The notes under the pieces: generated by a model
Seen by the model: the letters and a program-made list of their open reading frames with translations, nothing else
Database searches by the model: none
What the model was told of the DNA's origin: nothing
Made by a program: the position numbers and the translations under genes
Assembly: GCF_041986965.1 (NCBI RefSeq)
Contig: NZ_JBHIXB010000002.1
Location: 547,501-611,500, forward strand
Length of the DNA: 64,000 nucleotides
Origin: Hyphococcus sp.
GTDB taxonomy: Bacteria > Pseudomonadota > Alphaproteobacteria > Caulobacterales > Parvularculaceae
Reading direction: 5' to 3'
Shown here: positions 23,516-42,327 of the stretch, piece by piece
Layout of the letters: the number at the start of each line of letters is the position of its first letter
Numbering within the stretch: the first letter of the stretch is position 1

Positions 23516-23981
23516 GGGAGCGGCTCTTTCCTTTTGCTCAATTTCCACACAGGCTCAGACCCAAAAGGGGCCGGCAGTCAGCATGTAGCGCCTGCAGGAC
23601 AGAATTTCAGCGACAAAATCACCGGCTTAATATCACAAGCGCAAGTACGTATGAAAGGCGCAGGGGCCGATTGCCTTTCTGGAGCGAAATCGGCGCCCTT
23701 ACGGTGGAACGGGCCTGCCCCTTGCGCCGCTCGAAATTTGTGCAACGCAAAAAGGCCGGCCGTAAAATTTTAGCCATTTCTGCCGCGTTCAAGCAATAAA
23801 GCTTATTTTCAATTGCAAAATTAGGTCCTCGCAGTTCGGTTTCAGAGCCTGGCGGGGCATGATTCTCAAAACAGGTAAGAATGGCTCCGGCTCCTGCGCC
23901 GGTGACACGGAGCGATGAAACCAAAACAAAGATCGTGTATAATAGCACGGGCACCGATACGCTTTGCGCGCTGACGACGGA

Positions 23982-24932
23982 ATGGACCACTCAACAATGG
24001 CGCATCAAATCGAACATTTCGCAACGAACGAAGTCATCCAGCAAGAACGGCTGGAGTTCTGGAACAGGATTGCAAGCGAGACATTCTGCGGACTTAGCAT
24101 CGATTCCGAAAGAGAGATTTTCGACGCCGAAATGTGGCGCTGGTCCATGGGCGACATTACGATGATCCGCCCAAGATCGCCGAACGCCGTCGTGCAGCGA
24201 AATGCACGCATCGCGCGCGCCGGCGGCGACCGCGTGATGCTTCATTTTCAGCATGCTGGCAGTTGCCTCCACACCCAGGCCAACAAAATTTACCATCTGC
24301 GCGCCGGCGACGCGATCCTCACTGACAGCAACGAGGATTATCGCGTCGATCTGTCCAGCGACAATGTCATGCTTGTGGTTGAGATGCCGCGCGACGCCAT
24401 ATCCGAACGCATGCAGGGTCTCAATGACGCATTGTCACACAAGATCGCCGGCGAAACGCCGTCGAGCCGCCTGCTCCACGATTTTGTCCTGTCGCTATGG
24501 CGCCAGGGCGACCAGAGTCATGCAGATCCGGAGCGTGCCAAAGGCGTCGCCGACATTTTCTACAATCTTCTGGCGATGGCGCTCACCGACAAGAATGTCA
24601 GCGTTCAAAATGACTCGCTTTTAATCAATCGCCTCACTGCACTCGTCAACGCCCGCATTTGCGACCCTGACTTTCGGCCATCCGATCTGGCGGACGAACT
24701 CGGCGTATCCATTCGCACCGTACAGAACGCATTTGCTGCAATCGGTGAAACGCCGTCAGCCTACATCCTGAACAAAAGGCTGGCCCATGCAGCAGATCGC
24801 CTTATCGCAGCGCCGCAGCTGAGCGTCACCAGCATCGCATATGAATCCGGATTCAATGATTGCAGCTATTTCACCCGCTGCTTCAAACACAAATACGGTG
24901 CGGCGCCGACAGCCTACCGCGCCGCACACTAA
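23982..24932 (+). CDS. AraC family regulator (FeaR-like)
   Basis: N-terminal ERLEFW...F, C-terminal double HTH (LADELGVSIRTVQNAF; IAYESGFNDCSYFTRCFK). Divergent from the ALDH. Start at 23982 or 23997. Confidence 0.9.
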   Translation: MDHSTMAHQIEHFATNEVIQQERLEFWNRIASETFCGLSIDSEREIFDAEMWRWSMGDITMIRPRSPNAVVQRNARIARAGGDRVMLHFQHAGSCLHTQANKIYHLRAGDAILTDSNEDYRVDLSSDNVMLVVEMPRDAISERMQGLNDALSHKIAGETPSSRLLHDFVLSLWRQGDQSHADPERAKGVADIFYNLLAMALTDKNVSVQNDSLLINRLTALVNARICDPDFRPSDLADELGVSIRTVQNAFAAIGETPSAYILNKRLAHAADRLIAAPQLSVTSIAYESGFNDCSYFTRCFKHKYGAAPTAYRAAH

Positions 24933-25375: not shown

Positions 25376-27865
25376 ATGAACTACAAATTATCTGTGAGTA
25401 TCGGAGCTATGGCGATCGCCCTGACGGGAATCGCGCAGGCTCAGGTCGACACCATTACGGTGACGGCGCAAAAGCGCGAAGAAAACGTTCAGGACGTTCC
25501 TATCGCCGTTTCGGCCTTTGACGGCCAGTCGCTTCAGGAGCGCGCGGTGACGAGCGTCGCCGGCTTGTCGAATATTACGCCGAACGTTTCGCTCGACGCC
25601 GGCACGCCCTTTTCTGGAGATACAGCGGTCATCTCCGCTTACATCCGCGGCATCGGCGCCAATGACTTCGCCTTCAATATCGACCCGGGCGTCGGCGTTT
25701 ATCTCGACGGCGTCTATCTCGCCCGCTCCATCGGCGCAAACCAGGACCTTCTCGATGTTGAACGCATTGAAGTCTTGAAAGGCCCGCAAGGAACGCTTTT
25801 TGGCCGGAACACGATCGGCGGCGCGATCTCTATCGTCACGCATACGCCGGGCGATGAATTTTCGTTTTCCGGAGATGTCACCACAGGCAGTTTCGAACTG
25901 CTTCAAGTTCGCGGCACTGTCGATGTTCCGCTGACCGACTCGCTGAAATCTTCGGTCAGCTTCTCGCTCAAGGATCGCCGCGGCTACATGAAGCGCATGC
26001 CATATCCGGGCTTCGAAAATTACAATGTCGAGCCCATCCAGACGATGCGCGCCGCGATATACGGCAATGAAGGCGATTATGAAGGCGGCACCGACGCCAA
26101 GAACGCCCGCATCAAACTGCTTTACGATAATGGCGGGCCTTTCAGGGCAACACTTTCTGGCGACTACGCCTATTCCAAGCAAAGCCAGCTCGCGAACAAG
26201 GTGATCGCAACGAATGGCGCCGTCTTCGCCGGCACCTATAATTGCGCCATCGAAGGCGTCCAGCCGCCGGCGGGCGACATGTCCTGCGGCGGCGGCCCAC
26301 CGCCGATCGCTTATGCAGGCGGCATTGGCGGTCTTAATTGGGTGGCCGACAATCCTCCGATCTTCGGGGTCAATGTGGACGCCGATCCCTATAATGACCG
26401 GTTGCCATATGATGACAGGTTCGTGACGGACGATATCGACACCACCTACGCCAACGGCAACAATGTTGCACGGCTTGAAAACTACGGCGTTCACCTGACG
26501 CTCGACTTCGATATTACTGAAAGCGCCGTCCTGAAGTTCATTTCCGCCTATCGTCATCTCGATTGGGATGTCGGCATGGACATCGACGGATCGCCGCTGA
26601 ATTTCCTTCACACCAGCTTCACGACTGACCAGTGGCAGTTCAGCCAGGAAGTTCAGTTGACGGGCTCGGCGCTTGACGATCGCATCAACTATGTCATCGG
26701 CGGCTATTACTTTGTCGAAGAAGGCGATCTGCATGACTACGTCACCTTCGCCGAAGGCCTCTTGCAGGTCGACGGGCCGAACTATCTGAAGACGAAGAAC
26801 TATGCAGGCTTCGGGCAGATCGACTTTGATGTGACGGAGTGGCTGACGATTTCGGCCGGCGGCCGCTACACCCACGAAAAGAAACAGTTTGAGGGCGCGC
26901 AGTCTGACCGCAACGGCCTCAACTATAAAATCGCCCAGCAATTCGGCGATCCGGATTGCATGACGCTCGTCCCAACCATCTCCGAGGCTTGCCGTATTGC
27001 GCAAGGCTTCCCGGTTCCGGGCGAGCCGCTGCGTTACTATATCGCCGGCATTCAGGAGAAGAGCTTCAACAACTTCTCGCCGAAAGTCAGCCTTCAGGTG
27101 AAACCGGCCGACGGCATCATGGTCTATGGCAGCTACTCCGAAGGCTATCGCACCGGCGGCTGGACAACGCGTCTGTCGAACCCGCTGCCCACGGCGCCGG
27201 ATTTCGACGAGGAAGAAGCGACAAGTTGGGAGGTCGGCTACAAGTCGACGCTCTTTGACAATCGCGTCCTGTTCAATGTGGCCGCCTTCACGACCAAATA
27301 TGAAGGCATCCAGCTGAACTTCCAGCAAGGCGTTTCGCCGACCGTGCAGAACGCCGGCGACGCGCGCATCAAGGGGCTTGAAGTCGAAACCGTCTTCGCG
27401 CCCGGCAACGGCTTGTCGGTCAACGCCTCGGTCGGTCTGATCGATGCGGAATATATCGACGTTCTCGGCCCCGCGCAGGTGCCCGCCAACCCGCTTCAGG
27501 GCGGCATCTTCCCGGGCGCAGACCTGCCGAAAACGCCGGACTTCAAGTTCAATGTCAGCCCGCGTTTCGAGTTCGATCCCGGCAATGGCGCCACGATCGT
27601 GCTGCTCGCGGATTACACACACACGTCGTCCATGTGGAACGACACCGAACGGACCTTCCTGCTTGAGCGTCCGTCTACGGATATTCTCAACCTCAGCGCC
27701 TCTTACGAGGAGCCGAACGGCCGCTGGAACATCACGGTCGGCGGCACAAATATTACCGACGAACGCTACCTGACTACCGGTCAGGCGCAAATCGCCGGCG
27801 GCCAGATCTACGGCACCTACAGCCGTCCGGCCGAATGGTATGCGCGTTTGGGCGTTAATTTCTAA
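25376..27865 (+). CDS. TonB-dependent outer-membrane receptor
   Basis: Signal peptide, TonB box DTITVTAQKREE, plug IEVLKGPQGTLFGRNTIGGAI and C-terminal ...GVNF. RBS GGGAGG. Confidence 0.95.
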   Translation: MNYKLSVSIGAMAIALTGIAQAQVDTITVTAQKREENVQDVPIAVSAFDGQSLQERAVTSVAGLSNITPNVSLDAGTPFSGDTAVISAYIRGIGANDFAFNIDPGVGVYLDGVYLARSIGANQDLLDVERIEVLKGPQGTLFGRNTIGGAISIVTHTPGDEFSFSGDVTTGSFELLQVRGTVDVPLTDSLKSSVSFSLKDRRGYMKRMPYPGFENYNVEPIQTMRAAIYGNEGDYEGGTDAKNARIKLLYDNGGPFRATLSGDYAYSKQSQLANKVIATNGAVFAGTYNCAIEGVQPPAGDMSCGGGPPPIAYAGGIGGLNWVADNPPIFGVNVDADPYNDRLPYDDRFVTDDIDTTYANGNNVARLENYGVHLTLDFDITESAVLKFISAYRHLDWDVGMDIDGSPLNFLHTSFTTDQWQFSQEVQLTGSALDDRINYVIGGYYFVEEGDLHDYVTFAEGLLQVDGPNYLKTKNYAGFGQIDFDVTEWLTISAGGRYTHEKKQFEGAQSDRNGLNYKIAQQFGDPDCMTLVPTISEACRIAQGFPVPGEPLRYYIAGIQEKSFNNFSPKVSLQVKPADGIMVYGSYSEGYRTGGWTTRLSNPLPTAPDFDEEEATSWEVGYKSTLFDNRVLFNVAAFTTKYEGIQLNFQQGVSPTVQNAGDARIKGLEVETVFAPGNGLSVNASVGLIDAEYIDVLGPAQVPANPLQGGIFPGADLPKTPDFKFNVSPRFEFDPGNGATIVLLADYTHTSSMWNDTERTFLLERPSTDILNLSASYEEPNGRWNITVGGTNITDERYLTTGQAQIAGGQIYGTYSRPAEWYARLGVNF

Positions 27866-27883: not shown

Positions 27884-27915
27884 GGCGGGACCTTCGGGTC
27901 CCGCCTCTTTTTTTT
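27884..27915 (+). terminator. Rho-independent terminator after the receptor gene, inside the apparent operon
   Basis: GGCGGGACC-TTCG-GGTCCCGCC followed by a T tract. Confidence 0.85.
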
Positions 27916-27942
27916 GCTTTGTCAAACAGTGAGGTCCAACAG

Positions 27943-28341
27943 GTGATCAAACGGCGCGACACAATCAAGACCCTGTCTCTGGCGCCCTTCGCGGCCGCCT
28001 TTCCCGCTACCGTGCTGGCTGAAGAATTTCCGGCCGCGCCGCCAGCGCTTTTTATCTATGACAAGCGCCTTCCGGCGGCCCGCGATCTGGCGCTTATGGC
28101 CATGAAAGCCGGCCATGCGCCGCACCCTGCTGACTTTGACGAGACCGGTTTCTGGCGCAGCGGCGAAAAGCCCGATTTGCGCGCCTACAGCACGGTCTTC
28201 GGCGCCACCACTCGCCGCGCCTATTTTGTATTCGAACAATTGTCCCGGCTCCACCGGAGCCGTAGACTGAGCGACGCCGCTATCCTTCATGACGATCGCG
28301 CCTTCAGTTTCTGGACCCTTCGCTTCCAACCCGTGCATTAG
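27943..28341 (+). CDS. Small hypothetical protein with Tat-like signal
   Basis: GTG after GAGG. KRRDTIKTLSLAPFAAAFPATVLA resembles a twin-arginine leader with an AxA-like cleavage site. Confidence 0.55.
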   Translation: MIKRRDTIKTLSLAPFAAAFPATVLAEEFPAAPPALFIYDKRLPAARDLALMAMKAGHAPHPADFDETGFWRSGEKPDLRAYSTVFGATTRRAYFVFEQLSRLHRSRRLSDAAILHDDRAFSFWTLRFQPVH

Positions 28342-28350
28342 GAGAAGACT

Positions 28351-28884
28351 ATGCCTGAAGCCGCCACCACCGAATTCTGGAAAGACATCAAGCCGATCAA
28401 GGATGTCTTCAAACCGGAATCCCTGGGCGACGCCTATGCGTCGAAAATCGCCGAGGGCGATGAGCGCTATTTCGTTCCGATTTCGGAAACCGTTTCGTCG
28501 AAACCCGTCTGGATTTCGCCGCAACGGAACATGTGGGCCGATGTTTTGATGTCGAAATCGGCCGGTCTTGTGAACCGGCATTATCACCCGCATCAAATTT
28601 TCGCCTATACGATCTCCGGAAAATGGGGCTATCTCGAACATGACTGGACCGCGACCGCAGGCGATTTCGTCTATGAATCGCCCGGCGAAGGCCATACGCT
28701 GATCGCCTATGACAGCCCCGAGCCCATGAAAGTCTTTTTTGTCGTCACCGGTCCCCTGATCTGGCTCGATGATGACGGCAATGGCGTCGGCCATTACGAT
28801 GTTCACGATTACATCGCCGCTGCGCGCGAGCATTACGAGAAAGTCGGCATCGGCGCGGACTATGTGAAAACCCTGTTCCGGTAG
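28351..28884 (+). CDS. dad: 2,4'-dihydroxyacetophenone dioxygenase (cupin)
   Basis: WISPQRNMWADVL, AGLVNRHYHPH, YTISGKWGYLEHDWTAT, GEGHTL and HYEKVGIGAD match recalled Alcaligenes 4HAP DAD. 177 aa. Confidence 0.85.
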   Translation: MPEAATTEFWKDIKPIKDVFKPESLGDAYASKIAEGDERYFVPISETVSSKPVWISPQRNMWADVLMSKSAGLVNRHYHPHQIFAYTISGKWGYLEHDWTATAGDFVYESPGEGHTLIAYDSPEPMKVFFVVTGPLIWLDDDGNGVGHYDVHDYIAAAREHYEKVGIGADYVKTLFR

Positions 28885-28887
28885 ATT

Positions 28888-29295
28888 ATGCGCGTCAACG
28901 CTCTCGATCATGTCAACATCCAGACGCTCGACATTGCGGCAACGGTAAAGTTTTACGCCGAGGTTCTCGATCTCGAAGCGCGCGACCCGCCGCCGCCGCT
29001 CGATCCAAAACTGGTGCAGTGGATGTATGACGCGGATGAGCGCGCGATCTTTCACCTGACGACGCCGGGCTCCATCATGGGGGATGGCGGAAAAAGGCAC
29101 CTGCCGCGCGACACAGGCCCCGTACATCATGTGGCGCTGAACTGTTCCGGCCATGACGCCATGGTGGACCGCCTCACCTCGCTGGGGCTCGACCACAAGC
29201 TCAATCATGTGACGGCGATCGATCTGAAGCAGATCTTTGTTCGCGATCCGAACGGCGTGCTTCTGGAACTCAACTATTTTTCGGGAAACCATTAG
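28888..29295 (+). CDS. VOC/glyoxalase family protein
   Basis: LDHVNI, FYAEVL, HHVAL and FVRDPNGVLLEL. Confidence 0.85.
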   Translation: MRVNALDHVNIQTLDIAATVKFYAEVLDLEARDPPPPLDPKLVQWMYDADERAIFHLTTPGSIMGDGGKRHLPRDTGPVHHVALNCSGHDAMVDRLTSLGLDHKLNHVTAIDLKQIFVRDPNGVLLELNYFSGNH

Positions 29296-29307
29296 GGAGG
29301 ACCGCCA

Positions 29308-29841
29308 ATGTCCGGGATGAAAGCGCCGCCCTCCGGCGCGTATAAAATTGTCGAGGTCGAGGAGCTTTACGGCGACCTCATCAAACAGCGAGGCCTTGAG
29401 GGCACCTATGTCGGCAAATCGGAGGAAGAGAGCCCCTGGGTTCCCTTTGGCGACAACGCCGCCATCCGTCACCTCGCCTTTGACGTTCGCCAGAATGTTT
29501 ATTGCAATATTCTCTGGATCAAATCGCCGGGCGTGATCGGCACCCACAAACATCGCGGGCCCGTCTGGGCGGTCGGTCTTGAGGGGACGTTCCGCTATCT
29601 CGAATATGACTGGGTCTGCGGGCCGGGCGAGTTCATCACCGAAATGCCCGGCACGGCGCACACGCTCGTCACCGATGATCCGAACGGCATGAAGGCGCTC
29701 TTCTGGATGCAGGGCGCCAATGAATTTTACAATGAACAGGGCGAGTTTGTCGAAACGCTCGACGTGTGGTGGTTCATGAATCACTATGAGAGCTACTGCA
29801 AAGAAAAAGGCCTTCCCATCAATAAGCAACTGTATCTGTGA
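29308..29841 (+). CDS. Second DAD-family (ChrR-like) cupin
   Basis: GTHKHRG, FRYLEYDW, EMPGTAHTL and HYESYC. Same three-His layout as DAD but divergent. Confidence 0.75.
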   Translation: MSGMKAPPSGAYKIVEVEELYGDLIKQRGLEGTYVGKSEEESPWVPFGDNAAIRHLAFDVRQNVYCNILWIKSPGVIGTHKHRGPVWAVGLEGTFRYLEYDWVCGPGEFITEMPGTAHTLVTDDPNGMKALFWMQGANEFYNEQGEFVETLDVWWFMNHYESYCKEKGLPINKQLYL

Positions 29842-29844
29842 GCC

Positions 29845-30669
29845 ATGAAAGCACTTGAACAATTTGACATTAAAGGCCGTTCCGCGATTGTCACCGGCGC
29901 CGCCTCGGGCATTGGCCTCTGCTATGCGGAAGCCATGGCGGAAGCCGGCGCCGGCGTTACGCTGACGGATGTTGATCTCGAAGGCGCTGAGCGCGAGGCC
30001 AAGCGACTGCGCGAGGAAGGCTATGACGCGCGCGCGGCGCATCTCGACGTCGTCGACCGCGCCGAAACGACGAAAGTCTTCGATGAACATGTCAAACATT
30101 ATGGCGGGCTCGACATCGCCTTCGCCAATGCCGGGATTGATCCTGGCGACGGCTTCGCCGCGCCGGAAGGCGGGCGCAACCCGAAAGGACAGGTCGACGC
30201 GTATAACCCGGAAGCCTGGGACCGCTGCATCGCCATCAATCTCACCGGCATTTACAACACCATGCGCGAGGCGGCGCGGGTGATGAAGGCCGGCGGCAAG
30301 CCGGGCTCCATCATTGCCACGTCTTCCAACGCCGGGCTTGTCGTCGAGCCGATTGTCGGCATGCCCTATCACCCGGCGAAGGCGGGCGTTACGCATATGG
30401 TTCATTATCTCGCCATGGAGCTCGCCGAATACAAGATCCGTGTGAACGCCATCGCGCCCGGCCCCTTCGTCACCAATATCGGCGGCGGCTGGCTGCAGGA
30501 TCCGGTTGTGCGCGAAGCGTGGGACCATGTGGTGCCGCTGGGACGCATCGCGGAGACCTATCAGATGAAACCGCTGGCGCATTACCTTGCTTCTGACGCG
30601 TCGAATTACGTTACCGGCTCGCAGATGCTGATCGACGGCGGCATGGCGCTCGGAGGCTTCAAGCAGTAA
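29845..30669 (+). CDS. SDR oxidoreductase
   Basis: TGAASGIG, ANAG, YHPAK, VNAIAPG and IDGG. Confidence 0.9.
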   Translation: MKALEQFDIKGRSAIVTGAASGIGLCYAEAMAEAGAGVTLTDVDLEGAEREAKRLREEGYDARAAHLDVVDRAETTKVFDEHVKHYGGLDIAFANAGIDPGDGFAAPEGGRNPKGQVDAYNPEAWDRCIAINLTGIYNTMREAARVMKAGGKPGSIIATSSNAGLVVEPIVGMPYHPAKAGVTHMVHYLAMELAEYKIRVNAIAPGPFVTNIGGGWLQDPVVREAWDHVVPLGRIAETYQMKPLAHYLASDASNYVTGSQMLIDGGMALGGFKQ

Positions 30670-31791
30670 ATGTCCGTACACGCGAAAGCCGCCATCTGCC
30701 GCGGGTCCGACGAGCCTTTCACTATTGAGGACGTCACACTTGACGCGTTGCGGCCCGATGAGTTGCAAGTGCGCATCATCGCCTGCGGCGTGTGTCATAC
30801 GGATATGGCGGTGCGCGATCAGCAGGTGCCGGTGCCCCTTCCCGCCGTGCTCGGTCATGAAGGCGCCGGCATTGTCGAAGCGGTCGGCTCGGCGGTGACG
30901 GCGGCGAAACCGGGCGACCGGGTGATCCTCAGCTTCAACAGCTGCGGCGATTGCCCGAGCTGCGAAATCGATGCGCCGACCTATTGCTACAATTTCTTTC
31001 CCTATAACTGGACCGGCATGCGCGCAGACGGCTCGCCGACGCTGATGCAGGACGGGGAGAAACTGAACGCCAACTTCTTCGGACAGTCGAGCTTTGCGAC
31101 GCAGGTGATTTCTCATGAACGCAATACGGTCCGCGTGCCGGACGAGGCGGCAGATTTGCCCTTGGAACGACTTTGCCCGCTTGGCTGCGGCCTGATGACC
31201 GGGGCCGGCGCCGTTCTTCGTAGCATGGACGTGCGCGCCGGGCTGCCCATTGCGGTATTCGGCGCCGGCACGGTCGGCATGGCGGCGATCATGGCGGCGA
31301 AGATCGCCGGCGCCGATCCGATCATCGCCGTCGATGTCAATGACGACCGCCTCGCGATGGCCAAAGATCTGGGCGCGACCCACATTTTCAATGCGAAAGA
31401 TGATGCGGTCGCCAAAATCCAGACGTTGTGTCCCACAGGACTCGGCTACGCCTTCGATACAACCGGTATCAACAAGGTGATCGAGGATGCGTGGAGCCTT
31501 CTTGCACCCAAAGGGATATGTGGGATCGTCGGCGCCTCCGATCCGGAGGACAACCTCACCTTTAACGAAGCGGCCTTTATGGGCGGCGGGCGCCGTGTCA
31601 TGGGCATTCTCGGCGGAGACAGCGATTTGAAAACCTTTCTGCCGGAGCTGATCGGCTATCACTTGAAAGGACAATTCCCGTTCGAAAAACTGATCGGCTA
31701 TTTCGACTTCGATCAAATCAATGACGCCATCGCAGCCAGTGAAAACGGATCGGTCGTAAAACCGGTGCTGCGGATCGGCGCGGAAGGCTGA
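30670..31791 (+). CDS. Zn-dependent aryl-alcohol dehydrogenase (XylB/AreB-like)
   Basis: CGVCHTD, GHEGAG, CGDCPSC...C, FFGQSSFA, PLGCGLMTGAG and GAGTVG. Confidence 0.85.
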   Translation: MSVHAKAAICRGSDEPFTIEDVTLDALRPDELQVRIIACGVCHTDMAVRDQQVPVPLPAVLGHEGAGIVEAVGSAVTAAKPGDRVILSFNSCGDCPSCEIDAPTYCYNFFPYNWTGMRADGSPTLMQDGEKLNANFFGQSSFATQVISHERNTVRVPDEAADLPLERLCPLGCGLMTGAGAVLRSMDVRAGLPIAVFGAGTVGMAAIMAAKIAGADPIIAVDVNDDRLAMAKDLGATHIFNAKDDAVAKIQTLCPTGLGYAFDTTGINKVIEDAWSLLAPKGICGIVGASDPEDNLTFNEAAFMGGGRRVMGILGGDSDLKTFLPELIGYHLKGQFPFEKLIGYFDFDQINDAIAASENGSVVKPVLRIGAEG

Positions 31792-31796
31792 CACAA

Positions 31797-32804
31797 ATGC
31801 GCGCAGTTGTTCATCAGGGGCTTCACGAAAAGCTCGCCGTCGAAACCCTCGCTGATCCGACCCCCGGCCTGGGCGAAGTTGTCCTGTCGGTCGAACGCTG
31901 CGGCATTTGCGGCTCCGATCTGCACATGACCGAGGACCCGGCCTTTGGCGCGGACAAAGGCTCCATCCTTGGTCATGAATTCGCCGGCGAAGTGATCGGC
32001 CTCGGCAAAGGCGTTGAACGCCTGAAAAAAGGCGATCTCGTCTCTGTCGTGCCCATCGCCAGTTGCGGCCAATGCCCGACTTGTCTCGCAGGCGAACCGG
32101 CCTGGTGCGAAAAGATGCAGCTTCAGGGCGGCGGCTATGGCGAATTCGCCGTCACCAATGAAAACCAGTGCGTCGCGCTGCCGAAATCGGCGAGCATGGA
32201 AGACGGCGCCATTATTGAACCCCTCGCCGTCGCCCTTCATGGCGTGATGACCGGCGAGCAAAAGCCTGGCGACAAGGTGTTGATCCTCGGCGCCGGCCCT
32301 ATCGGTCTCGGCGTCGCCTTCTGGGCCCGCCGGTTCGGCGCATCGAAAGTCGTGGTGCAGGACATCAACCGTTTTCAGGAACAACGCGCGCGGGAAATGG
32401 GCGCAACGGATTTCATTGTCGATCTCGAAGACCCTGTCGGCGCCGCCGAACGCGCCCTCGGCGGCAAAGCCGACATTGTTTATGAATGCGTCGGCGTGCC
32501 GGGCCTTATACCGCAGGCCGTCGACCAGGTGCGCATCAAGGGGACGGTGCTGATCCTCGGCCTTTGCACAAGGCCCGAGACTTTCGTTCCTTTCGTGGCG
32601 CTCTCGAAAGAGGTGCGGCTTCAAACCTCGGCCTTTTTCAAGCGCCAGGAATATGAGGCGGCGCTTGATGCTCTTGACGCCGGCGCGGCGGAGCCGCGCG
32701 CGCTCATCACCGACACAATCAGCCTCGATGCTGTGCCGGAGGTTTTTGAATCGCTTAAAAAACGCACGCATCAGTGCAAAGTGCTGATTAACCCGAAAGG
32801 CTGA
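31797..32804 (+). CDS. Zn-dependent alcohol dehydrogenase (MDR)
   Basis: CGICGSDLH, GHE, CGQCPTC...C, EPLAV and GAGPIG. Confidence 0.85.
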   Translation: MRAVVHQGLHEKLAVETLADPTPGLGEVVLSVERCGICGSDLHMTEDPAFGADKGSILGHEFAGEVIGLGKGVERLKKGDLVSVVPIASCGQCPTCLAGEPAWCEKMQLQGGGYGEFAVTNENQCVALPKSASMEDGAIIEPLAVALHGVMTGEQKPGDKVLILGAGPIGLGVAFWARRFGASKVVVQDINRFQEQRAREMGATDFIVDLEDPVGAAERALGGKADIVYECVGVPGLIPQAVDQVRIKGTVLILGLCTRPETFVPFVALSKEVRLQTSAFFKRQEYEAALDALDAGAAEPRALITDTISLDAVPEVFESLKKRTHQCKVLINPKG

Positions 32805-32807
32805 TCC

Positions 32808-33557
32808 ATGCGGTATGAAAACAAATCCGTTCTTGTCACCGGCGCGGCCACCGGCATCGGCCGCGCGACAGCGATCGCTTTCGCCCGGGAAGGCGCGAAA
32901 GTGATGATCGGCGATTACAATGACGCCGCCGAAGACACCGTCGCTGAGATCAAGGGCGGAGGCGGAACGGCGGCGTTCCTTCATTGTGACGTTTCCAAAC
33001 GCGATCAGGTCGACGCTCTGGTCGCCGCTGCTGTCAAAGCCCATGGCGGCCTTGACGCCGCCTTCAATAACGCCGGCGTCTTTCCGCCGGAACAAATGTT
33101 CGCCGATTTCGATGAAGAGACGTTCGACCGCACGATTGCAATCAACCTCAAGGGCGTTTTTCTGTGCATGAAGGCGCAGCTTCCCGTCATGGTGAAACAG
33201 GGAAAAGGCGCCATCGTCAACACGTCTTCCGTCGGCGGCGTCATCGCCAATCCCGGCATGGCGCCCTATATCGCATCGAAGCATGGCGTTCTGGGACTGA
33301 CAAAAACTGCGGCGATTGAATATGTGAAACTCGGCGTGCGGATTAACGCCATCTGCCCGGGCTTCGTTCGCACGCCCATGACAGAGCCCTGGTTCCAGCG
33401 CGAAGGCTTTCTCGAAGCGTTTCTGCCCACCTCGCCCATTGGCCGCCATGCGCAGCCCGAAGAGATGGCCGGAACGGTTCTGCATCTTTGCTCCGACGAG
33501 GCAAGCTTCACTAACGGCGCCGTCATTCTCGTCGACGGCGGGCAAACCGCAATCTGA
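32808..33557 (+). CDS. SDR oxidoreductase
   Basis: TGAATGIG, FNNAG, YIASKHG and RINAICPG. Confidence 0.9.
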   Translation: MRYENKSVLVTGAATGIGRATAIAFAREGAKVMIGDYNDAAEDTVAEIKGGGGTAAFLHCDVSKRDQVDALVAAAVKAHGGLDAAFNNAGVFPPEQMFADFDEETFDRTIAINLKGVFLCMKAQLPVMVKQGKGAIVNTSSVGGVIANPGMAPYIASKHGVLGLTKTAAIEYVKLGVRINAICPGFVRTPMTEPWFQREGFLEAFLPTSPIGRHAQPEEMAGTVLHLCSDEASFTNGAVILVDGGQTAI

Positions 33558-33605: not shown

Positions 33606-34493
33606 ATGATGAAACTTTTCACCCGCGCGCTCGCCGCGCTGCTCTTTTTCACGTCGCCGGCATTCGCGGCAGACGCGCCGCTGGAGGTCGAAGTCCTCCA
33701 GACCAGCGCAGGTTCGCTCTACTCCAATGTGGTTCTGATCAAGGGCGAAGAAAAAGCCGTGCTTGTCGATCCGCCCTTCACCATGGCGGACGCGCACCGC
33801 GCCGCCGCCATGGTGCTCGACAGCGGCAAGGAGCTCGAAACCATCTTCGTCACCCACGATCATCCTGACCATTTCTTCGCCATGGAAGTGCTCACCGACG
33901 CCTTCCCAAATGCAAAAGTCGTTGCGCATCCGACCGTCGTCGCTGACATCTGGCGCTCCATGCCCTTCAAGGTGAAACGCTGGGGCCCGATGCTCGGCGC
34001 GAACGGCCCCAAAACACCCACGGCGCCCGCCGCGCTCGACGGTGATGTCATCATGCTCGAAGGCCATGAGTTGAAAGTGCTGGGGCCCATGCAGGGCGAT
34101 CATCATCATGCGACGGCGCTTTACGCTCCTTCTATCGACGCCCTTTTTGCGGGCGATCTTCTTTTCAACGAGATGTATCTCTGGCTCGGCGAGCACGGCC
34201 GCAAGGAAACACGCGAATGGGGCGAGGCCGTTGACGATCTCGCCGCCCTGGAGCCGGAGATTGTCGTTCCGGGACACGCAAAGCCCGGCATGCCCAACGA
34301 CGCCTCTAGCCTCGCCTATACCGGCGGCTTTATCGAGTTCTGGCTCGACGCGACGCGCAAGGCAAAGAACAGCGAAGAATTGCGCGCCATGGTGATCGAA
34401 CAATATCCGAACTCGATCGATGTGCTCGGCGATTTCCTGCTCGGCAATTCATCCAAGGTCGCCATGGGCGAAGAACCGCGCTGGGAGGAATAA
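33606..34493 (+). CDS. Exported metallo-beta-lactamase-fold hydrolase
   Basis: Sec signal (...SPAFA|AD), THDHPDH, GDHH, GDLL and VPGH. Confidence 0.8.
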   Translation: MMKLFTRALAALLFFTSPAFAADAPLEVEVLQTSAGSLYSNVVLIKGEEKAVLVDPPFTMADAHRAAAMVLDSGKELETIFVTHDHPDHFFAMEVLTDAFPNAKVVAHPTVVADIWRSMPFKVKRWGPMLGANGPKTPTAPAALDGDVIMLEGHELKVLGPMQGDHHHATALYAPSIDALFAGDLLFNEMYLWLGEHGRKETREWGEAVDDLAALEPEIVVPGHAKPGMPNDASSLAYTGGFIEFWLDATRKAKNSEELRAMVIEQYPNSIDVLGDFLLGNSSKVAMGEEPRWEE

Positions 34494-37121: not shown

Positions 37122-37973
37122 TCACGCCCCTTCGCGAAGCATCGTGGCCAGCTTGTCGATCCCTGAAAGCAGGAGTTCCGGGCGCTCCACCGGATCTTCA
37201 CGCGATTTGAACGCCGCTTCGTCATAGATGCCGGTCGTCACGCCCACCGAATAGGCGCCGCCGAGATTGGCCATTTTCGGCTCCAGCTGCGGATCGTCGC
37301 CGACAACGACAACGGATGCGTCCGGGGAAAGCCCCATGCGGGACTTTGCAACCGCGAGCGCATCCAGCGAAGGTTTACCGAGGACATGCGCCTCGGCGCC
37401 GGTCAGCGCTTTCAGCATGGCGTTGATCGCGAAACTCGTGCCGATGCCGCGTTTATCGGCGCCGGCGGCCGCGAAGAACGGCACATCCGACGCCGTGGTC
37501 AGATGCGCGCCCGCCCAGATCGCATGCACCGCCGCTTCGAGGTCCGGAAAGGTGAACTCCCGGAACCAGCCCACATAGATCGCATCATAAGGCCCGCCGT
37601 CGCCCGGCGCCTCGACGACATTGAGGCCGAGATCGGCGAGCGGCTTCCACACCGGCTCCTTGCCGAGCACGAGAATGCGCTCCGCGCCTTTTTCTTTCAG
37701 ATAATGCGCCGCCGCGGTCGAAGGCGTCATGAACTCCTCGTCGCGCACATCAAGGCCGGTCGCGCGCATGGCGTTCGCATACCATTCGGGCGTTCGCGCC
37801 GTGCCGTTCGTGAAGACCTGATAAGGAACGCCGCGCTCACGTAGAATGCTGAGTGTTTCAACGGCGCCCGGCAACGCTTTCTGGCCGGCGCTCGCCTTGT
37901 CGCCAAGGACGAGCGTGCCGTCCATGTCGAAGATGAACCCTTCGGCTTTGTGTAATCGTTCAGGTCCACTCAT
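37122..37973 (-). CDS. acvF: HAD-IIA phosphatase, AcvF/HpeD-like
   Basis: FDMDGTL, FTN, GKPS and VGDD. Last gene of the kinase-carboxylase run. Confidence 0.8.
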   Translation of the reverse strand: MSGPERLHKAEGFIFDMDGTLVLGDKASAGQKALPGAVETLSILRERGVPYQVFTNGTARTPEWYANAMRATGLDVRDEEFMTPSTAAAHYLKEKGAERILVLGKEPVWKPLADLGLNVVEAPGDGGPYDAIYVGWFREFTFPDLEAAVHAIWAGAHLTTASDVPFFAAAGADKRGIGTSFAINAMLKALTGAEAHVLGKPSLDALAVAKSRMGLSPDASVVVVGDDPQLEPKMANLGGAYSVGVTTGIYDEAAFKSREDPVERPELLLSGIDKLATMLREGA

Positions 37974-39451
37974 CAGGACAGTCCCGCTCCTTTGTAAAGC
38001 GCCATGCGGAAGCCGGGACGCTCCACGGCGATGTCCGGCGCGTCAGGCCGCGCGGCCAGTTGTTTCAGCAAGTTGAAAATCGGCGCCGCCTCGGGCGTAT
38101 AGGTCGCGCGGCTGCGCCCAGAGGCTAACATCGCCTCCACCTGATCTTCCGGCATGACGGCGCGGAAAAGAAATTCTTCATCGTCCATGTCTTCGCCGAA
38201 CTGCTTGCGCAGGTCTTTGTACGCCGGGAACATGGGTTCGTTCTGGATTTCCTTCATTCGCGGGCGGTCGAGAATGGTCTCCTTGACCGCTGCGTCGATG
38301 GGGCTTGTGGGTCGCCCGAACTTGCCCATGACATAACGCAGGATCTGATCGGAAACCTGCGCATAGCGCTTCGTCCCGATAACGTTAAAGAGCGCCTGGC
38401 TCATCACCATTTGCGGGAACGGCGTCACCATGATCGGATGGCCGAGTTCGGCGCGCACGCGCTCGGTCTCTTCGATCACTGCATCGAACTTATGACCAAG
38501 ATTGAGCTCATCGAGCTGGCGCCGGGTCGTGGTCATGACGCCGCCGGCGATCTGATGTCGGAGAAAGCTGGCGTCAAAACTTTGCGGGCGGCCGGGCGGC
38601 AATCCTTCAGCTTGCGCCAGCCGCGTCCAGTAATTCTTGACAGTCGACAACGCCGCATCATTGACGTTCACCGTATGACCGGCCTCGCGCAAATTCGCCA
38701 CCATGCGCGTCGCTTCCGGCAGGGACGAGCCGTCGCCAAGCGGCCCGACACCCACATGCACCGCGTCGATAATCCCGAGATCGGCGGCGGCGAGCGAGGT
38801 GAGCGGTCCGTAGCCGATGGTGCAATGCGCGTGGATTTCAAGAGGCTTGGCGCCGATGGCGGCCTTTACCGCCGGCGCCAGCGTCTTCACGCGATCAGGC
38901 GACATCAGCCCGCCCGGATCTTTCAGATAAAAAAGATCGACGTGATTGCTCTTGGCCAGCTTGGCCGCAAAGTCCGCGTAAAACTCGTCGGTGTGAATAT
39001 CCGAGAGCGTAAAGGTCAGCGCGCCCATGACGTCGGCGTCGCCCTCTTCCTTGATAATGCGCGCCGCTTCGATCACCGCGTCGACGTCATGCATGGGATC
39101 GAGGACGATGAAGCGGCGAATGCCCGCCATCTGCAGCCGGCGATAGGCGAGCCGCATGAATTCCGGGTCCGCCTGTTGCCATGCCACAAAGCGAAGCCCG
39201 GTTGTAATGAATTGCAAGGGCACACTCGGCATCGCCGCGCGCATACGCTTGATGCGCTCCCAGGGGTTGTTCTGGAAATAGCGGATCGCGACCGCCATGG
39301 TCGTCGACGAGGTGAAATCGCAGGCGTGAAAGCCGACGCGCTCCATCGCCCCGGCGATTTCCAAAATCTGCGCGGTGTTGAGGCCCGTAGCGCCCCAAAG
39401 CGACTGGTTGCCGTCGCGGATCGACACATCGACGAGCTTGATCTCAGCCAT
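37973..39451 (-). CDS. acvE: Carboxyltransferase subunit (pyruvate carboxylase-like) of acetovanillone carboxylase
   Basis: DVSIRDGNQS, YLKDPGG, HAHCT, HQIAGG and MVTPFPQ. Start at 39451. Confidence 0.8.
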   Translation of the reverse strand: MAEIKLVDVSIRDGNQSLWGATGLNTAQILEIAGAMERVGFHACDFTSSTTMAVAIRYFQNNPWERIKRMRAAMPSVPLQFITTGLRFVAWQQADPEFMRLAYRRLQMAGIRRFIVLDPMHDVDAVIEAARIIKEEGDADVMGALTFTLSDIHTDEFYADFAAKLAKSNHVDLFYLKDPGGLMSPDRVKTLAPAVKAAIGAKPLEIHAHCTIGYGPLTSLAAADLGIIDAVHVGVGPLGDGSSLPEATRMVANLREAGHTVNVNDAALSTVKNYWTRLAQAEGLPPGRPQSFDASFLRHQIAGGVMTTTRRQLDELNLGHKFDAVIEETERVRAELGHPIMVTPFPQMVMSQALFNVIGTKRYAQVSDQILRYVMGKFGRPTSPIDAAVKETILDRPRMKEIQNEPMFPAYKDLRKQFGEDMDDEEFLFRAVMPEDQVEAMLASGRSRATYTPEAAPIFNLLKQLAARPDAPDIAVERPGFRMALYKGAGLS

Positions 39452-40790
39452 GTTTGAGCCCCTCAAAGAAGCGCGTATCGACGCCGCCCTTTTGAAAGCG
39501 CGCATCGTCCATGATCCGCGCATGGAGCGGCGCCGTTGTTTTGACGCCTTCTACATTGAGCGTGGCGAGCGCCGCAGCGGTCCGTGCGATCGCCTCCTCG
39601 CGCGTCGCGCCATGAACGATCAGCTTGCCCATCAGCGAGTCGTAAGTCGGCGGAATGGAATCGCCTGAGCGGATATGCGTGTCGACGCGCACGCCCTCGC
39701 CCGCCGGCCACTCCGCTTTTTGCACCAATCCCGGCGACGGCCGGAAATCGGCGTCCGGGTCTTCGGCGTTGATCCTGACTTCGATGGCGGCCCCGAGAAA
39801 TCCGATATCGCGTTGTTCGTAACCAAGGGCCGCGCCGCTGGCGATCAGCAATTGCTGCTCGACAATATCGACGCCGGTGACCTCTTCCGTCACCGGATGT
39901 TCGACCTGAATGCGGGCGTTCATTTCAAGGAAATAGAAATCGAACGTCTCGGCGTCGACGAGAAATTCAACGGTGCCTGCGCCTTTGTAATGTAGATGTT
40001 CGGCGATCTTCACCGCCGCATTTTCGATGGCGCGGTGTTTGTCATCAGGGATGTTCGGCGCCGGCGCTTCTTCAACGAGTTTCTGGAACCGCCGCTGGAT
40101 GGAACAGTCGCGCGTGCCCAAATGAATGGCGCGCTTGCCGTCGCCGATCACCTGCACTTCGACATGGCGCCCCGAGGCGATGAACCGCTCCACATAAATG
40201 CGTGGATCGCCAAAGGCGGCTTCGGCTTCCGACATGGCGAGGCCGATCTGGGATTTCAGGTCCTCCGGCTTGTCCACGCGCTTCATGCCGCGCCCGCCGC
40301 CGCCAGAGACAGCTTTGATGAGCAGCGGATAACCGGTCTTTTTGGCGATTTTCGCGGCGTCTTCAGCGGCTTGCGCCTCACCGCCCGGCACGACGGGCAG
40401 CCCCGCTTCAATCGCGACAGCGCGCGCTTTCAGCTTGTCGCCCATGGCGTCGAGGGCTTTCGGATCGGGGCCGACAAAGACCATTCCGGCGTCGGCGATG
40501 GCGCGCGCGAACCGGATATTCTCCGACAAAAAGCCGTAGCCCGGATGCACCGCATCAGCGCCGGCTTCCTTTGCCGCGGCCACCACCTTTTCGATATTGA
40601 GATAGGATTGTGACGACGGCGCGGGCCCAAGGCGCACAACCTCATCCGCTTCCGCCGCGCCACGCGATGTCGCGTCCGCATCCGAAACGCCTAACACAGT
40701 CTTCATACCCAATCGCCGCGCCGTCCTGATAACGCGCAGCGCGATCTCGCCGCGATTGGCGATGAAGAGCGTGTTGATAGGATTGCGCAT
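39444..40790 (-). CDS. acvD: Biotin carboxylase subunit
   Basis: ANRGEIA, HPGYGFLSEN, GGGGRGM, RDCSIQRR, EMNARIQVEH and RINAED. Confidence 0.85.
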   Translation of the reverse strand: MRNPINTLFIANRGEIALRVIRTARRLGMKTVLGVSDADATSRGAAEADEVVRLGPAPSSQSYLNIEKVVAAAKEAGADAVHPGYGFLSENIRFARAIADAGMVFVGPDPKALDAMGDKLKARAVAIEAGLPVVPGGEAQAAEDAAKIAKKTGYPLLIKAVSGGGGRGMKRVDKPEDLKSQIGLAMSEAEAAFGDPRIYVERFIASGRHVEVQVIGDGKRAIHLGTRDCSIQRRFQKLVEEAPAPNIPDDKHRAIENAAVKIAEHLHYKGAGTVEFLVDAETFDFYFLEMNARIQVEHPVTEEVTGVDIVEQQLLIASGAALGYEQRDIGFLGAAIEVRINAEDPDADFRPSPGLVQKAEWPAGEGVRVDTHIRSGDSIPPTYDSLMGKLIVHGATREEAIARTAAALATLNVEGVKTTAPLHARIMDDARFQKGGVDTRFFEGLKHG

Positions 40791-40800
40791 GCCTGTTCGC

Positions 40801-41262
40801 CTACTCCGGCTTCACCTTCATCAGGATCGATGTCGCCTCGATAGGTTCGGCATTCTCCGGAACAATCTCGACGATCTCGCCTTCGACGCCCGCATGAACA
40901 GGGTTCATCAACTTCATGGTTTCGATGATCGCAACCACGGTGTCAGGCTTCACCTTGTGGCCAACCTCTACAAAGGGCGGGGCGCCCGGCTGCGGCGCGC
41001 GATAGAAGGTGCCCGGCAGCGGCGGTTTGATAATGAGCAGACCGTCCTCTTCCGGGACAACATCCGGTTCGACGGCGGACGCGACGGTCTTCGCGGCCTC
41101 GCCGCCAATCGGCGTCCATTCCTGCGTAAACCCGTCGCCGGAGCGTTTCACGCGCAGGCGAAAACGCGCGGTTTCAATATCGAGCACGTCATAAGATGAC
41201 TTCGCAAGAATTGAGGCGATTTCCTCAACATCTTCGGGGCTTAGCGGTAGATCATGGCTCAT
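40801..41262 (-). CDS. acvC: Biotin carboxyl carrier protein
   Basis: GTFYRAP and IETMKLMN (biotinylated Lys). Confidence 0.85.
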   Translation of the reverse strand: MSHDLPLSPEDVEEIASILAKSSYDVLDIETARFRLRVKRSGDGFTQEWTPIGGEAAKTVASAVEPDVVPEEDGLLIIKPPLPGTFYRAPQPGAPPFVEVGHKVKPDTVVAIIETMKLMNPVHAGVEGEIVEIVPENAEPIEATSILMKVKPE

Positions 41263-41265
41263 GAC

Positions 41266-42318
41266 TTAGGATCGCTTTCCGCCGAAAATGTTCATGACGT
41301 GCTTCATGGGATTGTCCTGCGCTGCGGCAACCGGCGCAGCGTCTTTGGCGGACCAGACCGTTTCCGGCCGGCTTTGAAGCAAGAGGATTTTGCCCGTGCC
41401 GCTTTCGACCGCCCATTCGATATCCTGCGGTTTGCCGTAGTGTTTTTCGGTCTTGCGCGCGATGTCTTTCAATTGAATGAGCTCTTCATCGCTGAGGCAG
41501 GGCGCCGTGCGTTCCGCCTCAGGCAATTCCACATCCTCGATGCCGCCGCCCGGTTTCGGCGATTGCCGGATATGCTTGTCGGAAATATCGCGCGTCGTGA
41601 TTTCACCGGTGAGCTTGCCGACCACCCAGCGGTCGGGCGTCACCTCGCCGGAGACAACGGAGGACCCAAGCCCCCAGGCGCCTTCGATAGTGATGACCGA
41701 GCGGTCGCCGGTTAAGGGGCTGCGCGTGAACATGACGCCCGCCGTCCTCGCATCGACCATCTTTTGAACGACGACGCCCATGGCGACGCCGCTTTCAGGA
41801 AAGTTCTGCCGACGGCGATAGCAAACCGACTCGACGGAATAGAGCGACGCCCAACAGGAGCGCACCATCTTCATGGTTTCTTCCGCGCCAAGCACCCAGA
41901 GATAGGTGTCCTGCAATCCGGCGAAGGAGGCGTCATCGGCGTCTTCCGTCGTCGCCGATGACCGCACGGCGACCGGCGATTGTGCATCGTCGCCGCACAG
42001 CGTTGCGTAAGCCGACTTGATTTCATTTTCGACGTCGGCGGGCATAGGTTCTTTTACAATGCGCGCGCGGATCGCCTTTGTGACGTCAGCGACCTTGTCG
42101 AGATCATCCGGATCGAGGGCTTCCACGGGCGCGCGCAGAGGCTCTTCCCTGTCGAGTTTCTGAACGAACTCTTCAAACGCTTCGGTGCGCACGACAAAGC
42201 CCGGCGGCACCTCGATGCCCGCTTTTGTCAGCTCGCCGAGACTGCCGCCCTTGCCGCCGACGCTCGGACGATCTTCCAGTCCAATATCGGCGAACCATGA
42301 AATGTTTTTCGTCGTCAT
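41266..42318 (-). CDS. acvB: Phenylphosphate-synthase-like kinase, ATP-binding subunit
   Basis: VGGKGGSLGEL, AVRSSATTED, SFAGLQDTYL, GLGSSVVSG, DIEWA and LQSRP. Confidence 0.85.
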   Translation of the reverse strand: MTTKNISWFADIGLEDRPSVGGKGGSLGELTKAGIEVPPGFVVRTEAFEEFVQKLDREEPLRAPVEALDPDDLDKVADVTKAIRARIVKEPMPADVENEIKSAYATLCGDDAQSPVAVRSSATTEDADDASFAGLQDTYLWVLGAEETMKMVRSCWASLYSVESVCYRRRQNFPESGVAMGVVVQKMVDARTAGVMFTRSPLTGDRSVITIEGAWGLGSSVVSGEVTPDRWVVGKLTGEITTRDISDKHIRQSPKPGGGIEDVELPEAERTAPCLSDEELIQLKDIARKTEKHYGKPQDIEWAVESGTGKILLLQSRPETVWSAKDAAPVAAAQDNPMKHVMNIFGGKRS

Positions 42319-42327
42319 CTCGTAAAC

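Follow-up and report, generated by a model that had tools for sequence, protein, structure and literature searches.

A 64,000-nt stretch of the genome of a marine Hyphococcus sp. (assembly GCF_041986965.1, contig NZ_JBHIXB010000002.1, positions 547,501–611,500 of the forward strand), the whole of which is referred to as the window and in which all coordinates are given, carries at 28351–29841 two cupin genes enclosing a gene of the vicinal oxygen chelate (VOC) superfamily. Sequence comparison identifies cupin 1 as a true orthologue of 2,4′-dihydroxyacetophenone dioxygenase (DAD), that is, as another member of a known enzyme, while cupin 2 (CUP2) belongs to the DAD family by its fold and catalytic residues and forms a tight, strongly conserved and narrow orthologous group within it. 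The best reading of the data is that DAD and CUP2 are two independent iron-dependent α-hydroxyketone dioxygenases, which would act on different substrates. On balance, we favour a model in which three metalloenzymes serve the use of lignin-derived aryl ketols within a conserved operon that is led by a TonB-dependent receptor gene and headed by an AraC-type regulator gene.

The three genes are the following:
28351–28884, + strand: cupin 1, the DAD orthologue, 177 aa (Cupin_7/Cupin_2; PDB 4p9g)
28888–29295, + strand: VOC protein, 135 aa, single domain (PF00903, Glyoxalase/VOC)
29308–29841, + strand: cupin 2 (CUP2), 177 aa (Cupin_7/Cupin_2), a DAD-family orthologous group of its own

They are co-oriented and separated by gaps of 3 and then 12 nt. 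Two 177-aa cupins around a VOC protein had been read here by a first-pass annotation made from the DNA letters, and ORF calling and Pfam bore this out. The three ORFs are real genes rather than chance ORFs, because cupin 1 matches 4p9g with an E value of 1e-90, 491 CUP2 and 760 VOC homologues exist, and the gene order is repeated in dozens of genomes.

The two cupins and their active sites

Cupin 1 could be aligned end to end with the crystallised DAD of Alcaligenes sp. 4HAP (PDB 4p9g; E 9.7e-91, approximately 69% identity), and this full-length alignment places it in the fold of the DAD family. It keeps every named active-site residue of DAD, namely H77/H79/H115, Trp62/Asp64, Tyr94, Glu109, and Phe130, including both members of the phenol-binding pair (Trp62 and Asp64) that marks a strict DAD. 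The published numbering of the Alcaligenes enzyme drops Met1, thus its His76/78/114 correspond to H77/H79/H115 of cupin 1 and to H80/H82/H118 of CUP2. According to the crystallographic work, Tyr93 forms a hydrogen bond with the α-hydroxyl group and stabilises the intermediates, Glu108 is the proposed O2 shuttle, Trp61 and Asp63 bind the para-hydroxyl group of the substrate, Phe129 stacks on the ring, and Val82 and Phe129 line the pocket proposed for the peroxo intermediate (PMC4219425). Judging from the 69% identity and the complete conservation of the site, cupin 1 would be expected to catalyse the O2-dependent conversion of 2,4′-dihydroxyacetophenone (2,4′-DHAP) into 4-hydroxybenzoate and formate.

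CUP2 is a much more distant relative. Its identity to cupin 1 was 31% over 134 residues (E 1e-20), and the DAD crystal structures were matched at E 7e-19 only, with 29–31% identity. The 491 homologues of CUP2, across Proteobacteria and across phyla, are mostly 65–88% identical to it, and at 50% clustering the entire strict CUP2 group was reduced to one full-length representative. To compare the active sites, the DAD numbering (PMC4219425) was mapped onto 67 DAD, 92 CUP2, and 64 CUP3 sequences, the last being a third cupin of related loci with approximately 56% identity to CUP2, and spot checks were added. His76, His78, His114, Tyr93, Glu108, and Leu94 were invariant in all 223 sequences, and position 82 was Val or Ile throughout the three groups. 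Both cupins of the window have the three-His iron site as well as the Tyr93/Glu108/Val82/Phe129 set, which is represented in CUP2 by Tyr97, Glu112, Val86, and Phe132. The intact His triads noticed in the first-pass annotation were recovered at H77/H79/H115 and H80/H82/H118, and so were the two different pocket motifs, RHYHPH at residues 76–81 of cupin 1 and THKHRG at residues 79–84 of CUP2.

In contrast with the catalytic residues, the pocket of CUP2 is changed (Tyr65, Asn67, Gly84, Ile53, Phe156, and His159 in the window protein), and these replacements are fixed within the clade as Y/N/G/I/F/H against W/D/H/S/Y/A in DAD. The following positions, in DAD numbering, differ in CUP2 and CUP3, each clade being fixed for its replacements:
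Trp61, to Tyr or Phe; para-hydroxyl binder together with Asp63
Asp63, to Asn (in 92/92 CUP2 and 64/64 CUP3 sequences)
His80, to Gly; two residues past a metal ligand, on the strand face of Val82
Ser49, to Ile
Tyr153, to Phe
Position 156 (Met in the Alcaligenes DAD, Ala in the DAD clade of cupin 1), to His

Consequently, CUP2 departs from a strict DAD at the phenol-binding pair, having Tyr65/Asn67 instead of Trp61/Asp63. Phe129 is kept by the strict CUP2 proteins, while CUP3 and every basal CUP2-like member have Gly at this position (Gly129 type). A maximum-likelihood tree (quick search) resolved DAD, CUP3, and strict CUP2 as separate clades, each with 100% support, and a very long branch lay between DAD and the remaining two.

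The AlphaFold model of CUP2 (pLDDT 87.6) showed the cupin barrel, the DAD-type N-terminal arm and the C-terminal helices, and its best matches in the PDB were the DAD structures 5bpx and 4p9g (TM 0.81–0.83, with 0.83 for 5bpx). These were followed by two uncharacterised cupins and then by the 3-His acetylacetone dioxygenase Dke1 (3bal, rank 9). Since the fold and the catalytic residues are kept and the pocket is changed, the simplest reading is that CUP2 performs the same chemistry on a different substrate: it is likely an active dioxygenase, and its substrate probably differs from that of DAD. The proposal of the first-pass annotation that the two cupins may split their substrates thereby gained support of an indirect kind, from the retention of the catalytic residues, the replacement of the substrate-binding and pocket residues in 92 of the 92 CUP2 sequences, and an inheritance independent of DAD that is described below.

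No characterised enzyme of the CUP2 clade was found by a full-text literature search, and cupins and DAD are both absent from a 2026 review of lignin-dimer pathways. NCBI labels CUP2 as "DAD family protein". Several proteins of the clade (P0014, P0052, P0053, and MBESNS4_1160) are called "tRNA modification GTPase" in UniRef or GenBank, evidently an annotation error that hides the family.

Gene neighbourhood of CUP2 and the VOC protein

One genome per species was scanned for relatives of CUP2, 535 of which were found, and the closest 80, mostly from Sphingomonadales and Hyphococcus, were analysed; the neighbour counts refer to 77 of these loci for DAD, VOC, and CUP3 and to 74 for the short-chain dehydrogenase/reductase (SDR) and the VanA-like gene. 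CUP2 adjoined DAD in 64/77 loci (83%), thus the second cupin is conserved beside dad, contrary to what the first-pass annotation had named as part of a refutation of its proposal. Its steadiest partner is nevertheless the SDR gene, which was adjacent in 69 of 74 loci (93%). Outside Alphaproteobacteria, in Paraburkholderia, Chromohalobacter, and Paenalcaligenes, CUP2 occurs in the order regulator, major facilitator superfamily (MFS) transporter, CUP2, SDR, and ADH335 (a 335-aa zinc dehydrogenase, see below), without DAD or VOC.

These data bear on the other proposal of the first-pass annotation, a heteromer of the two cupins. A hetero-oligomer in which CUP2 is a regulatory or specificity subunit of DAD could be suspected from the adjacent, co-oriented genes with short gaps, from the neighbourhood of DAD in the 64 close loci, and from the common fold, the more so as DAD itself oligomerises as a dimer or tetramer (PMC4219425). 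An obligate heteromer is unlikely, because CUP2 is found without an adjacent DAD in 13 of the 77 close loci and stands alone with SDR and ADH in the beta- and gammaproteobacterial operons, it has a complete catalytic site of its own, and Ile130 at the centre of the dimer interface of DAD is replaced by a nearly invariant Trp in CUP2, indicating that the interface has diverged. Moreover, the DAD and CUP2 genes are usually parted by a VOC or a third cupin gene. We consequently regard the heteromer as very improbable.

The recurrent order of the module in Sphingomonadales and Hyphococcus was AraC, TonB receptor, DAD, X, CUP2, (VanA-like Rieske oxygenase), SDR, (ADH373), ADH335, SDR249, and metallo-β-lactamase-fold (MBL) hydrolase, with the genes in brackets present in a part of the loci. 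In the window, the genes and signals around the three ORFs were as follows:
23964–24932, + strand: AraC-family regulator (AraC_binding_2 and HTH_18 by Pfam), head of the module, upstream of the receptor gene in most related loci
25376–27865, + strand: TonB-dependent outer-membrane receptor (Plug and TonB_dep_Rec_b-barrel), upstream of the cupins in relatives (46–97% identity)
27884–27915, + strand: terminator-like hairpin 3′ of the receptor gene, 9-bp stem with 8 G–C pairs and a T-rich tail with eight T at its end
27919–28341, + strand: 140-aa ORF with a twin-arginine-like N-terminus (RRDTIK), no family in Pfam
29845–30669, + strand: classical SDR (Pfam), commonest neighbour of CUP2
30670–31791, + strand: zinc alcohol dehydrogenase of the benzyl-alcohol dehydrogenase type, 373 aa (ADH373; PDB 1f8f), in a subset of loci
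31797–32804, + strand: zinc dehydrogenase of the polyol/butanediol type, 335 aa (ADH335; Pfam; PDB 6ie0 and sorbitol dehydrogenases)
32808–33557, + strand: second SDR, 249 aa (SDR249; Pfam), module member in relatives too
33606–34493, + strand: MBL-fold hydrolase (Pfam), module member, also in loci without VOC
37122–44142, − strand: gene set of the acetovanillone/4-hydroxyacetophenone carboxylation type (PEP-utilizers and PPDK_N dikinase pair, biotin carrier, biotin carboxylase, carboxyltransferase, and HAD phosphatase)

The genes 3′ of CUP2, from the SDR through the MBL gene, are separated by gaps of 0–5 nt plus one of 48 nt. The hairpin at 27884–27915, which is strong and looks like a canonical intrinsic terminator, suggests that the enzyme genes may form a transcription unit of their own or may be attenuated. 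The 140-aa ORF starts with TTG 4 nt past the T-rich tail of the terminator and ends 9 nt ahead of dad. It is restricted to Hyphococcus-like loci and showed 57–77% identity in three of them (L001, L005, and L006). The acetovanillone-carboxylase-like operon and a glutathione S-transferase gene flank the module on the opposite strand. In the six Hyphococcus loci (L001–L006), CUP2 was 93–100% identical. An even sample of 400 alphaproteobacterial genomes contained a CUP2-like gene with >60% identity in just one other genome, which is too sparse for co-occurrence statistics. Among sequencing runs, this stretch was listed only in marine and seawater metagenome DNA runs and in no RNA run.

Position X between DAD and CUP2 was occupied by CUP3 in 60/77 loci and by the VOC gene in 12/77 (CUP3 only, 58; VOC only, 10; both, 2; neither, 7). 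The Hyphococcus form with VOC in the middle is thus a minority arrangement, the common one being three DAD-family cupins in a row. That VOC and CUP3 are strict alternatives was considered and dropped, as metagenome contigs often pair VOC with a Gly129-type cupin. A VanA-like oxygenase gene (Rieske and VanA_C domains) lies between CUP2 and SDR in 43/74 loci, for example, in Novosphingobium (L064:8545–9621), and is absent from the Hyphococcus window.

The dehydrogenases point to the substrate class. The top solved relative of the SDR was the (S)-carbonyl reductase of Candida parapsilosis (3ctm, E 6e-36), an enzyme that reduces 2-hydroxyacetophenone to phenylethanediol. ADH335, which stays with CUP2 and SDR beyond Alphaproteobacteria too, was nearest to (R,R)-butanediol dehydrogenase (6ie0) and sorbitol dehydrogenases (E ~1e-40), and ADH373 to benzyl alcohol dehydrogenase (1f8f, E 5e-93). 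The families of SDR and ADH335 interconvert vicinal diols and α-hydroxyketones, the latter being the substrate class of DAD.

The VOC protein is a conserved single-domain protein of the glyoxalase fold, probably a metalloprotein, that belongs to an uncharacterised subfamily. PF00903 covered residues 6–128, the model (pLDDT 84) consisted of two beta-alpha-beta-beta-beta modules, and 354 VOC entries of the PDB matched it at E<=0.001. Alignment of the 760 homologues revealed invariant H8, H56, H80, H81, H89, and E127; in the model, H8, H56, H80/H81, and E127 are placed on the first and the last strand of each module, where VOC proteins usually have their metal ligands, and by this position they are candidate ligands. 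The protein is not a glyoxalase I by the NCBIfam models (best score 17–23 bits against cut-offs of 115–320), none of the curated families passed, and its second ligand position is His, not the Glu of glyoxalase I. The sequence search of the PDB gave weak matches only, the fold search returned unannotated VOC proteins, GLOD5, and fosfomycin-resistance proteins at like scores with no characterised close relative among them, and the ESM Atlas contained generic VOC clusters only.

From the VOC side, 80 metagenome loci were collected, 69 of which were informative and 11 too short to tell. In 27 of the 80 loci the gene was in a cupin operon, and since 26 of these 27 genes were directly upstream of a CUP2-type cupin, VOC is an optional accessory linked to this cupin rather than to DAD. 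In four related soil contigs (L088, L105, L108, and L114), which possibly represent a single event, VOC homologues with 61–66% identity immediately precede an operon for an NAD-dependent formate dehydrogenase (Complex1_51K, molybdopterin subunit, and FdsD); formate is the C1 product of DAD.

CUP2-like genes of the basal group have aromatic neighbours of several kinds: a LigM-like GCV_T gene in Streptomyces, acetovanillone carboxylase genes, and LigAB with an acetyl-CoA-synthetase-type gene. In one locus (L091:6001–10772), a Gly129-type gene is followed by ligA–ligB (protocatechuate 4,5-dioxygenase), AraC, and the acetyl-CoA-synthetase-type ligase, an order that would fit cleavage to an aromatic acid and acetate. 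A carboxylase set like that at 37122–44142 adjoins cupin–SDR–ADH genes in two unrelated soil contigs (L086 and L087) and lies directly downstream of a CUP2-like gene in a further locus (L090). The Hyphococcus genome itself has two tandem CUP2-like cupins on another contig (C3:487201–488271; L093:8190–9278), which are 70% and 67% identical to CUP2 and carry Gly at the position of Phe129. These are located 3′ of a BKACE (VceA-like) gene and an SDR gene, with a LigM-like GCV_T gene, an MmyB-type regulator and MFS transporters alongside.

Proposed pathway and its alternatives

Lignin is suggested as the context by earlier work on other bacteria. Novosphingobium sp. MBES04 has an operon of four genes, annotated as DAD, "tRNA modification GTPase", SDR, and "GroES", whose expression rose 3- to 45-fold with the β-O-4 dimer GGGE and 8- to 89-fold with lignin; hydroxypropiovanillone was the best effector, and 2,4′-DHAP was active too (PMC10866074). 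When N. aromaticivorans uses G-diketone, a diol (GD) and two Hibbert ketols (GP-1 and GP-2) appear, and the side chain of GP-1 and GD is cut by "an as of yet uncharacterized enzyme" (PMC8612281). Hydroxypropiovanillone was also considered as the substrate of the operon and was downgraded, as MBES04 accumulates this compound and N. aromaticivorans F199 without the GMC oxidase HpvY does not grow on it (PMC11837543; F199 was consulted for HpvY only). Because F199 needs HpvY, the cupin operon is probably not the hydroxypropiovanillone route.

A pathway built on the observed gene content, residue conservation, fold, and gene linkage might run as follows. DAD would bind ArCO–CH2OH on its 3-His Fe(II), with the para-hydroxyl group held by Trp/Asp, and O2 would cut the C–C bond to give an aromatic acid and formate. 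SDR and ADH335 would produce the ketol substrate of CUP2 by oxidation of a vicinal-diol side chain, and CUP2 would perform DAD chemistry on this bulkier or differently substituted ketol. The most likely candidate is a C6–C3 ketol, for example, 2-hydroxy-1-arylpropan-1-one (GP-1, from the diol GD) or a Cα-oxidised arylglycerol, and the products would be a vanillate-type acid and acetate or glycolate. The VOC protein may contribute metal-assisted enediol chemistry, such as the isomerisation of GP-2 and GP-1 or an epimerisation. A split between primary and secondary α-hydroxyketones, as the first-pass annotation had envisaged, would fit the His80 to Gly change, the diol-type dehydrogenases downstream and the GP-1/GD gap (PMC8612281); that CUP2 acts on the secondary C6–C3 ketol specifically is a tentative assignment, for which we see clearly less than an even chance. 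For the VOC protein, isomerase or epimerase activity on the ketol via enediol chemistry is the function we favour, yet as a rather doubtful guess, and detoxification of a 2-oxoaldehyde is also possible.

Several observations weigh against this scheme. MBES04 does not consume hydroxypropiovanillone but accumulates it (PMC10866074). The position of His80 as a pocket-lining residue was deduced from the alternating side-chain pattern of its strand, not from a structure, and the activity, substrate, and products proposed for the CUP2 clade are predictions from sequence and gene context. The top PDB matches of SDR and ADH scored only modestly above sugar dehydrogenases, and an OprB porin and an MFS transporter of the sugar type are encoded in some CUP2 operons; because of these two features, a non-aromatic, polyol-derived ketol is still a possible substrate of CUP2. 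Finally, 42 of the 80 VOC loci (42 of the 69 informative ones) had the VOC gene elsewhere than in a cupin operon.

The main rival would make the CUP2-type cupins β-dicarbonyl dioxygenases like Dke1, which is a 3-His cupin and among the nearest folds. They would act on vanilloyl acetaldehyde or vanilloyl acetate, formed from hydroxypropiovanillone via the dehydrogenases or from acetovanillone via the neighbouring carboxylase, and would yield vanillate and glyoxal or glyoxylate, the VOC and perhaps the MBL protein detoxifying the 2-oxoaldehyde. The glyoxalase-fold and MBL-fold members of the module would be explained in this way, as would the induction of the MBES04 operon by hydroxypropiovanillone (PMC10866074), the CUP2-type genes beside acetovanillone-carboxylase genes (L086, L087, and L090), such genes being near in the window as well, and those beside the BKACE gene elsewhere in the genome. 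However, MBES04 accumulates hydroxypropiovanillone despite strong induction of the operon, growth of F199 on it is lost without HpvY, Tyr93, the residue of DAD that is specific for the ketol, is invariant in CUP2, MBL is retained where VOC is absent, and the cupins linked to the carboxylase and BKACE genes are of the Gly129 type and not strict CUP2. Considering these points, we regard a Dke1-like function as unlikely. A split by the ring, in which DAD takes p-hydroxyphenyl ArCO–CH2OH and CUP2 (and CUP3 elsewhere) this primary ketol with a guaiacyl or syringyl ring, is an alternative to be kept in view, with an equally small probability in our estimate. It draws on the changed para-hydroxyl binders (Trp61 to Tyr, Asp63 to Asn), on the Phe129 to Gly change in CUP3 and other relatives, which would enlarge the ring pocket, and on the frequent neighbourhood of methoxy-group enzymes (VanA-like and LigM-like), but His80 to Gly would lie on the iron side and not the ring side of the pocket, and CUP2 is linked to diol-type dehydrogenases even without DAD. 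The ring split overlaps with the split by side chain, and both may hold together.

Less probable still is that CUP2 is no oxygenase but isomerises or tautomerises the ketol with the help of a metal, or binds a ligand, and in this way prepares the substrate for DAD or another enzyme. Sugar isomerases with similar metal sites were among the weaker fold matches, and the oxygenase activity of the clade is itself a prediction; on the other hand, strict CUP2 proteins retain the residues proposed for peroxo and O2 handling (Tyr93, Val82, Phe129, and Glu108), and CUP2 operons exist without any other dioxygenase.

Taking the preferred reading of two α-hydroxyketone dioxygenases further, DAD, CUP2, and the Gly129-type cupins could form a graded set of α-ketol dioxygenases, which together with SDR and the polyol-type dehydrogenase would constitute an undescribed glutathione-independent, O2-driven route, with VOC as the ketol isomerase or epimerase for regio- and stereoisomers. 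This extension is speculative. If true, arylethanediols, arylpropanediols, arylglycerols, and Hibbert ketones would be converted into vanillate-type acids and formate, acetate, or glycolate, and the missing step of GP-1/GD side-chain cleavage would be filled. In bacterial lignin catabolism, ring and β-ether cleavage are well mapped, while the fates of several C6–C2 and C6–C3 ketol and diol monomers are open, including Hibbert ketones from acidolysis and Cα-oxidised end groups. A conserved operon that combines two or three dioxygenases of the DAD family with matching diol dehydrogenases, has a dedicated outer-membrane receptor and is strongly induced by lignin in one strain is a concrete candidate for the side-chain step (PMC8612281). 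Confirmation of the activity would open a cofactor-free funnelling of mixed lignin ketols to vanillate or syringate for valorisation and would put right misnomers in the databases, for example, "tRNA modification GTPase".

Comparison with known systems

The operon has already been noticed, and left uncharacterised, in two papers. In strain SG61-1L, an SDR gene directly follows two DAD genes and precedes one for a benzyl alcohol dehydrogenase, and the SDR weakly oxidised the benzylic alcohol of the α-S isomers of GGE with NAD+ (PMC4651090). The order around this SDR "474" (SZ64_16365), CUP–CUP2–SDR–ADH373, is the same as in the window and in Erythrobacteraceae loci, the orthology being drawn from the description alone; the enzyme was assayed on GGE only and had a low kcat/Km, with α-S specificity (PMC4651090). 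Cluster G-II/L-III of MBES04 (MBESNS4_1161–1158) is the same kind of operon, with a cupin annotated as DAD, a CUP2 homologue (the "tRNA modification GTPase"), SDR, Zn-ADH (the "GroES" gene), and AraC, and was likened to the window by annotation and gene order, not by sequence (PMC10866074). It differs in having four genes without VOC, and its three non-DAD genes were left hypothetical by the authors (PMC10866074).

Dke1 (3bal) shares with CUP2 the monocupin architecture, the 3-His Fe(II) site and an O2-dependent cleavage of the C–C bond beside a carbonyl group (TM 0.76), but the identity is 15%, and Dke1 acts on β-diketones and has no counterpart to the extensions that DAD-type proteins carry at both termini. 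The closest characterised system is DAD itself (EC 1.13.11.41; Alcaligenes sp. 4HAP, 4p9g/5bpx; Burkholderia sp. AZ11), which has the same length as cupin 1 and is approximately 69% identical to it. With CUP2, it has in common the fold (TM 0.83), the 3-His iron site and the Tyr93/Glu108/Val82/Phe129 set, whereas CUP2 is 29–31% identical, has Trp61/Asp63, His80, Ser49, Tyr153, and Met156 replaced, contains a 7-residue insertion in the N-terminal arm and is inherited with SDR and the polyol-type ADH, not with dad.

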